From IMG/VR virus record IMGVR_UViG_3300048591_000242, positions 1 through 64,000 of that record: a DNA stretch of 64,000 nt; one strand, written 5' to 3'. Shown here piece after piece: positions 22,533 to 23,640 of this stretch; the stretch's first letter is position 1, and each line of letters starts with the position of its first letter. Source of the DNA: a virus (Duplodnaviria > Caudoviricetes). Made by a program: the position numbers and the translations under genes. Under the pieces are notes generated by a model. That model was not told the DNA's origin. It saw only the letters and a list, made by a program, of their open reading frames with translations, and ran no database searches.

Positions 22533-23640
22533 AGTAAACCACTAACATTTAGTTAACCCTTAAATACTAGTAAACCCGAAAGAAACAGCTACCCATGTCG
22601 TCCTAGTAAATCCAAATACAAAAGCTATCCAAGGAATAGAACGTAAACCAGTGTTCCTAAGTTACCCTAAGGAAAACAGTAAACCTGATTATGTTAGTTA
22701 ACCAAAGCAAAGAAGTAAACCCCATCATAACAGGTACCCAATAATCTACAGTAAATCTTCCTACGTAAGTTAACCGTAGAGAACTAATAAACCACCCGTT
22801 GTAAGGTACCCATAGAAAATTAGTAAATCTGTTTTTATTAGTTACCCAGTATAGGAGAGTATACCTTTATAAATAAGTTACCCAGCTACTGTAAGTAAAC
22901 CCATAGACCATAGATACCCCACGTGTAAATAGTAGGTCCACCACAACCAGTTATCCTAAGGCTGATAGCAAAACCCCATTTTTGTAGATACCCCAAAGGA
23001 AGAAGTAACCCTTCACTGTACAGTTAACCCGCGGCATGAAGTAATCCCACATAACGAAGAGAACAAACCCTTATTAAATAGTTATCCAAAATCACAATGT
23101 AAACTTGTTATTAATAGTTACCCTTGCTAAAAAAGTAAATCTCAAGGAGGTAGTTAACCATAGCCAGGTAGTAAATCGGCATATCGAATTTACCCAAAAA
23201 GGAATAAGTAACCCATTTTAAATTAGTTATCCAAAAGGAAGAAGTAAGCCCTCATGTAGAAGTTAACCTATAGGGATAAGTAAACCATAACAATGGAGTT
23301 ACCCTGACGTATTAAGTAAACCGTGTTAAAAAGTTACCCTGATGAATCCAGTGAACCTGTGCTCCTAAGTTAACCAAATGTAATAAGTAATCCTTAAGTA
23401 ATTTAGTTCCCCTATACCCCAATGAAATCCAAGAGGTGTGAGTTACCCAGTCATAGCAAAGAAAGTCATATTTTAAAAAGCTACCCAGAACAGTAAAGCA
23501 AATCGTTTTTAAAAAGCTACCCAGAAGAATACAGTAGTCTACAAGTATCTAGCTACCCTGCAATCTATAGAGGTTCAAAAGAAAGGAGTTACCCACAATT
23601 AAAAAGAAAGCCACGAACTATTAGTTACCCCAATCAAGGA
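22533..23640 (+). repeat. TIGR-like dual-repeat guide array, ~30 units of 36 nt
   Basis: Alternating 8-nt motifs A (AGTAAACC at 22533, 22569, 22605 ... 23605; 31 copies) and B (AGTTACCC/AGTTAACC/AGCTACCC at 22551, 22587 ... 23623; 30 copies) separated by mostly unique 9-11 nt spacers; no ORF. Confidence 0.9.

Follow-up and report, generated by a model that had tools for sequence, protein, structure and literature searches.

A dual-repeat TIGR-Tas array in a phage genome, with a minority of paired guides that resemble gene starts

The DNA analysed here, a stretch of 64,000 nucleotides that we call the window, comprises positions 1 to 64,000 of the IMG/VR virus record IMGVR_UViG_3300048591_000242. 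The record as a whole is a 202-kb contig with terminal repeats, and the N-terminus of its tail fibre is 36-40% identical to counterparts in Vibrio jumbo phages. A tas gene encoding 477 amino acids (21064..22497, plus strand) is followed on the same strand by an array of short alternating repeats (22533..23648) that starts 36 nt past the tas stop codon. Further along, an ORF on the minus strand (24863-25492) carries glycoside hydrolase 108 and PG_binding_3 domains and is likely an endolysin.

The array comprises 30 regular units of 36 nt each. Repeat matches occur every 18 nt, AGTAAACC (motif A) and AGTTACCC (motif B) in alternation, and each unit reads, in order, edge repeat AGTAAACC, spacer A (10 nt), loop repeat AGTTACCC and spacer B (10 nt). 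The variable stretches are 10 nt long, or 9-12 nt in a few units, and the first variable base 3' of the loop repeat is an A in about half of the units. Both repeats have the form AG....CC, with AG at the place of box D and CC at that of box C. The locus therefore has the hallmarks of a dual-repeat TIGR-Tas array: two distinct repeats alternating in a unit of ~36 nt, an adjacent tas gene on the same strand, repeats that both begin with box D and end with box C, and an edge repeat at the array start with a degenerate copy at the array end. A previous reading of the window from its sequence alone (the sequence-only reading) had already taken the locus for a TIGR array, and this identification held. 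The regularity is broken at 23040..23079 (plus strand), where two successive edge-type repeats (23040 and 23062) lie 14 nt apart. In the 3' part of the array the A repeats are degenerate and the B repeats intact, and the last edge repeat, itself 3'-degenerate, ends the array at 23641-23648 (plus strand). No further copy of such units was found elsewhere in the 202-kb genome, and no Rfam family matched the array.

Two predicted hairpins flank the array on the plus strand. The first (22505..22536) spans the interval from the tas stop codon to the first repeat; the fold of 22495-22540 has an energy of -10.4 kcal/mol (z -2.1), and a hairpin between tas and array is also present in the related loci L003, L005 and L006 and in the Ralstonia jumbo phage phiRSL1. 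The second (23659..23683) lies 3' of the array and has no T run (fold of 23636-23700: -18.4 kcal/mol, z -2.8). A consensus terminator scan returned nothing at this second hairpin, and a scan with sigma-70 and terminator consensus sequences gave nothing above shuffles. Two details of the array may bear on its history. The sequence AGTAAACG (22497-22504), which overlaps the tas stop codon and is one letter from the edge repeat, sits exactly 36 nt before the first repeat with no loop repeat in between, and may be a relic unit or a coincidence. Within 23459-23532, two neighbouring units look duplicated and since diverged: TTTTAAAA is common to both copies of spacer A, and 7 of 10 positions agree between those of spacer B.

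The product of tas contains a Tas/Nop core (residues 142-436). It scored 112.4 bits over residues 142-417 against the NCBIfam model NF052498 (TIGR_Tas_endo; 'TIGR-Tas system RNA-guided endonuclease'), for which the curated cutoff is 100 bits, and matched TasR (9mty) by phmmer with an E value of 3.7e-5. An AlphaFold model of the protein matched the structures of TasH (9w04/21kl) and TasR (9mty) with a Foldseek probability of 1.0; since the core of this model is of low confidence, its identity rests on the sequence evidence. Both NF052498 and Foldseek thus point to a Nop-type guide-binding core. Neither Pfam nor NCBIfam detected an HNH or RuvC domain in Tas, as is characteristic of the TasA class.

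Preceding the core, approximately residues 1-130 (21064..21453, plus strand) form a domain with a nucleotidyltransferase-like fold, modelled with a pLDDT of 80-91 over residues 1-120. Its Foldseek matches are TM1012 (2ewr, with a target-length TM of 0.57), JHP933 (4o8s), TENT5 and CCA-adding enzymes. None of the six family members compared has the second acidic residue of the DxD motif, and the first is not invariant; on this sequence evidence, the domain is probably catalytically inactive. Lacking HNH and RuvC domains as well as the acidic pair, this Tas is therefore nuclease-free and carries an extra domain that is probably inactive, in keeping with the nuclease-less RNP of the sequence-only reading. 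Five relatives, 44-54% identical, have the same Tas architecture. Most of the remaining Tas homologues are 270-410 aa long and aligned only in the core, and a single-protein scan of viral contigs for relatives found none. A solo Nop protein consists of a coiled coil and the Nop domain only; this Tas has 130 aa more at its N-terminus, and 'TasA-like with an added domain' is the more fitting description. The two main TIGR papers, searched by word, make no mention of a nucleotidyltransferase-like N-terminal domain, and this domain architecture is new here. In the C-terminal tail, His 439 and Tyr 461 (~22378-22446) are invariant across the subfamily and may represent the published Y/H dyad that processes dual-repeat pre-tigRNA.

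Among characterised systems, the dual-repeat TIGR-TasA of Flavonifractor plautii (FpTasA; PMC12045711) likewise combines a nuclease-free Nop-type Tas with an adjacent array. Dual-repeat TIGR-TasA loci and the window share two alternating short repeats with paired short spacers in a 36-nt period, the G of box D at the start and the CC of box C at the end of each repeat, and an edge repeat at both array ends. They differ in that the window has conserved repeat blocks of 8 nt and variable stretches of 10 nt, rather than 9 and 9, in the extra nucleotidyltransferase-like domain of ~130 aa, and in the number of units, which is 30 here and usually 5 to 15.

A further relative is ORF034 of phiRSL1 (NC_010811), the Tas core of which is 33% identical to that of the window. 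Its product is a Tas of 345 aa with no N-terminal extra domain, and the array downstream, set off from the gene by a hairpin, has ~36 units with the loop repeat AGTCACCC, edge repeats of the form AGYGnnCC and spacers of 10 nt. In this region (L029:3932-6330; NC_010811 ~13180-15578) the Tas homologue is annotated 'transposase' in the record, and the 1.4-kb gene-free stretch that follows it, which is the TIGR array (~14257-15578), bears no annotation. In L002 (930-2620), a relative from an activated-sludge metagenome, the array instead lies upstream of tas; the loop repeat (A/T)GATACCC is kept, the edge repeats are very variable in length, and the units measure 36-52 nt with longer gaps besides. 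A PhuZ-type tubulin gene is located 1.2 kb downstream of this tas.

TIGR arrays start and finish with an edge repeat (Faure et al. 2025, PMC12045711). In the window both ends are formed by motif A; the arrays of L003, L005 and L006 begin with an A-type repeat after the hairpin, and that of L005 also finishes with one, directly before a terminator. Motif A also resembles the edge repeats AGYGnnCC and AGCGAGTCA of the phiRSL1 and L011 arrays, and motif B resembles the phiRSL1 loop repeat. These array ends and repeat likenesses therefore indicate that motif B is the loop, and the array ends in the window and in its relatives agree with the same assignment made from the sequence alone. The published TasR loop, however, is A-rich and would fit motif A better; we gave the array ends more weight.

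The pairing of the spacers follows from the cleavage pattern of TasR, which leaves 8-nt 3' overhangs (PMC12045711). We derived from this that, on the top strand of a target, spacer A comes first and the reverse complement of spacer B second; with the order inverted, the overhangs would be 5' ones. A target made of one spacer and the reverse complement of its partner across motif B, as originally suggested, is thus in agreement with the TasR geometry, and it also accords with the array ends in four relatives. A G that had been appended in brackets to some of these targets, on the strength of the terminal C of the adjacent repeat, has no basis, as the box C bases are otherwise engaged: in the solved TasR complex they contact the protein and pair with box D (PMC12045711). 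The count of gene-start-like sequences described below did not rise when each composite was extended at both ends by the complement of the final C of the repeat.

The sequence-only reading had claimed that paired spacers rebuild a Shine-Dalgarno sequence (SD, the ribosome-binding site) together with a start codon, and had given eight composite strings in support. All eight could be rebuilt from their positions in the array, but one was mis-copied: the string of 23431-23459 is 20 nt long and has 'tgtgct' before the ATG, not 'tgttgct'. Four composites contain a complete SD and ATG (units 22967, 23170, 23243 and 23423), three (23134, 23207 and 23605) need a G beyond what the guide specifies, and that of unit 22822 has no start codon. 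To score such sequences, we built a position-weight model (log-odds, positions -22 to +6) from 195 predicted gene starts of the phage, with the starts refined. The matrix has a GGAG/AGGA core at -13 to -8, and ATG is the start in 169 of the 195 genes. Each composite was scored in both orientations at every offset along the matrix that covered the SD columns.

With motif B as the loop, 5 of 30 composites scored at least 10 bits and 6 of 30 at least 8 bits. All five high-scoring units are on the plus strand. For unit 22967..23003, the composite (spacer B plus reverse-complemented spacer A) consists of AAGGA, 9 nt and ATG (12.1 bits); that of unit 23170..23206 has AAGGA, 8 nt and ATG (11.3 bits), and that of unit 23243..23278 AGGGA, 7 nt and ATG (10.5 bits). 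Unit 23207..23242 gives AAGGA, 11 nt and a terminal AT, so that its start codon is incomplete (10.4 bits). Unit 23423..23458 is flipped, with GAGGTG in spacer A and the antisense of ATG in spacer B (12.4 bits). Since the spacer B sequences of units 23207 and 22967 differ at one of 10 positions, these two of the five may be diverged duplicates. An SD in spacer B and a CAT in spacer A of the same unit were only loosely associated.

These numbers were compared with several controls. Random 20-mers from the genome reached 10 bits in 0.5% of cases, equivalent to 0.14 per 30, and sequences centred on intergenic DNA of the phage did so in only 1.8%, which argues that the register is specific. When letters were shuffled inside each spacer, a procedure that controls composition but not an unknown sequence preference, 0.15 composites were expected at 10 bits (P<0.001). 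When partners were shuffled, 1.0 was expected against the 5 observed (P=0.0015), and the mean composite score also exceeded the partner shuffle (P<0.001). A simple regex test (4-nt SD, 5-10 nt, ATG) found 4 cases, compared with 1.6 for shuffled partners (P=0.04). The comparison of SD-plus-start geometry with shuffled pairs, which the sequence-only reading had named as a way to refute its claim, thus came out above the shuffle both at 10 bits and by regex. The pentamer AAGGA, which lies upstream of 30 of the 195 predicted phage starts, occurs seven times in the sense orientation of the spacers and never in antisense (0.44 expected, P=4.5e-7). The effect also depended on geometry: at 10 bits the published arrangement with motif B as the loop gave 5 of 30, inverted and same-strand joins gave none, and motif A as the loop gave 2 of 29. 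Gene-start likeness therefore exceeds chance by every control that we built, yet it covers just a fifth of the guides. The rebuilding of SD and start codon from paired spacers is accordingly real above chance, but complete look-alikes are confined to 5-6 of the 30 composites.

This proportion bears on the boldest form of the original proposal, in which the whole system is specialised for translation-initiation regions and most guides lie on an SD and start codon. Around 16 of the 30 composites do contain some SD-like four-letter word, four more terminate in AT or GT with suitable spacing from a word of this kind, and in 11 cases, compared with 4 for the opposite half, the SD words lie in the half from which a start would fall within the site or just beyond it. 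However, 24 of the 30 fall short of 8 bits, the guide does not itself specify the final G of the partial cases, and the feature is missing from the arrays of relatives. We consider so general a specialisation improbable.

The comparison with other arrays was indeed negative. None of 116 composites from eight arrays reached 10 bits: 0 of 26 units in the arrays of the three closest relatives, 0 of 54 in four other metagenomic TasA arrays, and 0 of 36 in the array of phiRSL1, whose composites are not gene-start-like. Had the 26 closest units followed the rate seen in the window, some four of them would have reached 10 bits. Two of the 116 reached 8 bits, which is the background rate. Gene-start likeness thus does not replicate in related arrays.

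Other features of the spacers are more widespread. Spacer B is purine-rich and C-poor (~63-71% A+G) in six of nine arrays (the window, L006, L010, L011, L012 and L015), and spacer A is not; L005 and phiRSL1 are exceptions, and L003 was left out of the measurement. Swap experiments suggest that the two spacers are equivalent, in which case a purine bias of spacer B only would not be expected. The spacers are also AT-rich relative to their own genomes, with 30% GC against 40% for the genome in the window and ~43% GC in phiRSL1 (L029:5009-6330), the genome of which is near 58% GC.

A purine-rich spacer B will by itself yield more SD-like words, and this leads to the main rival of a gene-start interpretation. 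Here, TIGR-Tas binding would be the same, but the likeness to gene starts would be incidental, a product of AT-rich spacers, a purine-rich spacer B, duplicated units and chance picking, and the purine content of spacer B could have a mechanical origin, for example stabler hybrids of purine RNA on pyrimidine DNA. The recurrence of the purine bias in five other arrays, the low GC content of the spacers, the lack of any 10-bit composite elsewhere and the modest P value of the regex pairing test all fit such an explanation. It is less readily reconciled with the letter shuffle, which keeps composition and still falls far short of the five composites seen, with the partner shuffle by counts and by mean score, with the 16-fold enrichment of AAGGA in the sense orientation only, or with the appearance of hits only in the published geometry. 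We regard an incidental origin as a serious contender, less likely than not and only slightly behind the explanation that we favour.

No natural target of the guides was found in the phage's own genome, in relatives' contigs, in viral contigs or in species genomes. The self-target search, which the sequence-only reading had proposed for the full phage genome, used 18- and 20-nt composites, trimmed at either end and with gaps of -1 to +3, and gave best matches no better than those of shuffled partners. Self matches with one mismatch at 189726 and 4666 were discarded: they lie in coding sequence, and they use a trimming that is less likely given the repeat structure. There was likewise no cross-targeting between the phage and relatives' contigs. 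These results bear on whether the guides might bind the phage's own gene starts to time expression. In their SD words (AAGGA, AGGAG, GAGGT) the composites do resemble the phage's own genes, as such self-regulation would have it. However, neither gapped nor ungapped matches in the 202-kb genome rose above shuffled partners, and the gene-start-like composites were no nearer to phage starts than phage starts are to each other. We regard self-regulation as close to refuted, unless binding tolerates at least 4 mismatches in 18.

We also searched for exact matches to inner-anchored 18-/19-mers, using six composites against 2.9 million viral contigs and one composite against 185,579 species genomes. 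Units 23423, 23243 and 23004 had no exact match in the viral contigs. Units 23170 and 22967 each matched a true gene start, effectively in one phage each, the two phages being unrelated and one of them a Clostridium-phage-like contig; no second guide matched either record beyond shuffled controls. Two other candidates were rejected, a single viral-contig match of unit 23134 within a 1085-aa ORF and a single match of unit 23423 in the species genomes, which lies out of frame inside an ORF of a Sulfurovum MAG. All four independent database matches look like chance; a gene-start-like word tends to match gene starts anyway. This view agrees with the warning that short spacers yield many false-positive targets (Xu et al. 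2026, bioRxiv 10.64898/2026.09.09.750476), and the implausible records in which the gene-start-like matches fell add to the case for an incidental likeness. Thus, with look-alikes limited to 5-6 of 30 guides here and 0 of 116 elsewhere, and no self target above shuffles, the general claim that the guides target gene starts was not substantiated.

Action at the level of RNA was also considered: an SD-like spacer B might base-pair with the anti-SD end of 16S rRNA, or mRNA might be what the guides recognise. Box C/D Nop proteins, to which Tas is related, guide rRNA modification, and the SD words of the spacers are all in the RNA sense orientation. Set against this, the flanks of the SD words differ among guides, the partner spacer is the antisense of a start codon, which is sensible only for a duplex target, and TasR is inactive on RNA substrates (PMC12045711). 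We therefore hold action on RNA to be very unlikely.

Overall, the explanation that we favour, with a probability of roughly 0.4, is a TIGR-Tas guide array in which a minority of guides lie on the 5' ends of target genes. The locus encodes the guides of a dual-repeat TIGR-Tas system, and its carrier is taken to be an uncultured marine phage of the phiKZ-like (nucleus-forming) kind. On this model, the array would be transcribed from the plus strand, with tas or after it. The pre-tigRNA would be cut within the AGTAAACC edge repeats to give 36-nt tigRNAs, each of which, by extrapolation from other Tas proteins, would load a Tas dimer. In the pairing geometry published for TasR and TasH, spacer A would then pair with one strand and spacer B with the opposite strand of the half-site next to it; together they would define one site of 18-20 bp. 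Since Tas lacks HNH and RuvC domains, the complex should remain on its site and obstruct transcription, as has been published for TasA and dead TasR. Given that the phage's own genome contains no sites, these must lie elsewhere, in AT-rich DNA of a host, a plasmid or a rival phage.

That five or six of the 30 sites run from SD to ATG would then be a real property of the array. A roadblock at the 5' end of a target gene would silence the whole gene, and escape mutations would be least affordable there. On double-stranded DNA, we know of no reason for a roadblock to lie exactly on the SD and ATG. Nor is the gene-start form a rule, as most guides here and all those examined in relatives are without it. 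The placement of a minority of guides at 5' gene ends in an AT-rich non-self genome is accordingly a tentative proposal, which may well be wrong. The narrower idea that natural guides are aimed at the SD-to-start stretch of genes of the host or of rival elements, as a natural counterpart of CRISPR interference at gene starts, we think possible but rather unlikely. Interference by dCas9, as well as the natural nuclease-free CRISPR effectors Cas12k and type IV, shares with the proposed mechanism RNA-guided binding without cutting and a polymerase roadblock that is most effective close to the start of a gene, at its 5' end; the TIGR-Tas protein, however, is unrelated, requires no PAM, and uses two short guides that read both strands.

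Repression by Tas proteins has precedent. MbTasA, CsTasR and PateTasR are RNA-guided transcriptional repressors in E. coli (Xu et al. 2026, bioRxiv 10.64898/2026.09.09.750476), and binding by PlTasA has also been studied (bioRxiv 10.64898/2026.08.11.744272). With these proteins the system described here would have in common a nuclease-free or nuclease-dead Tas, recognition of a duplex site via two heteroduplexes and a block to transcription, repression in the phage being proposed by analogy. The repressors MbTasA, CsTasR and PateTasR were directed by engineered guides in E. coli, whereas in the window the natural guides themselves hint, from sequence alone, at a class of target. The presence of TIGR-Tas in phages (2025) and repression by nuclease-free Tas (preprint, September 2026) are already known, while the natural targets and role of TIGR-Tas have been stated to be unknown (PMC12045711; bioRxiv 10.64898/2026.09.09.750476). 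What this locus adds in that respect is a statistically supported, unreplicated hint at a natural target class.

The array offers a testable hypothesis, namely that defined gene-start-like duplexes of 18-20 bp are read in the published geometry by a nuclease-free Tas. Should the likeness prove incidental, it would serve as a caution that short paired guides can mimic regulatory sites, and two general biases, the purine-rich spacer B and the AT-rich spacers, would remain to be explained. If the hypothesis is true, a natural class of target would have been named for a TIGR system for the first time, in a phage whose own DNA is shielded in a phage nucleus. It would also bear on what a nucleus-forming phage does to the DNA outside its nucleus.
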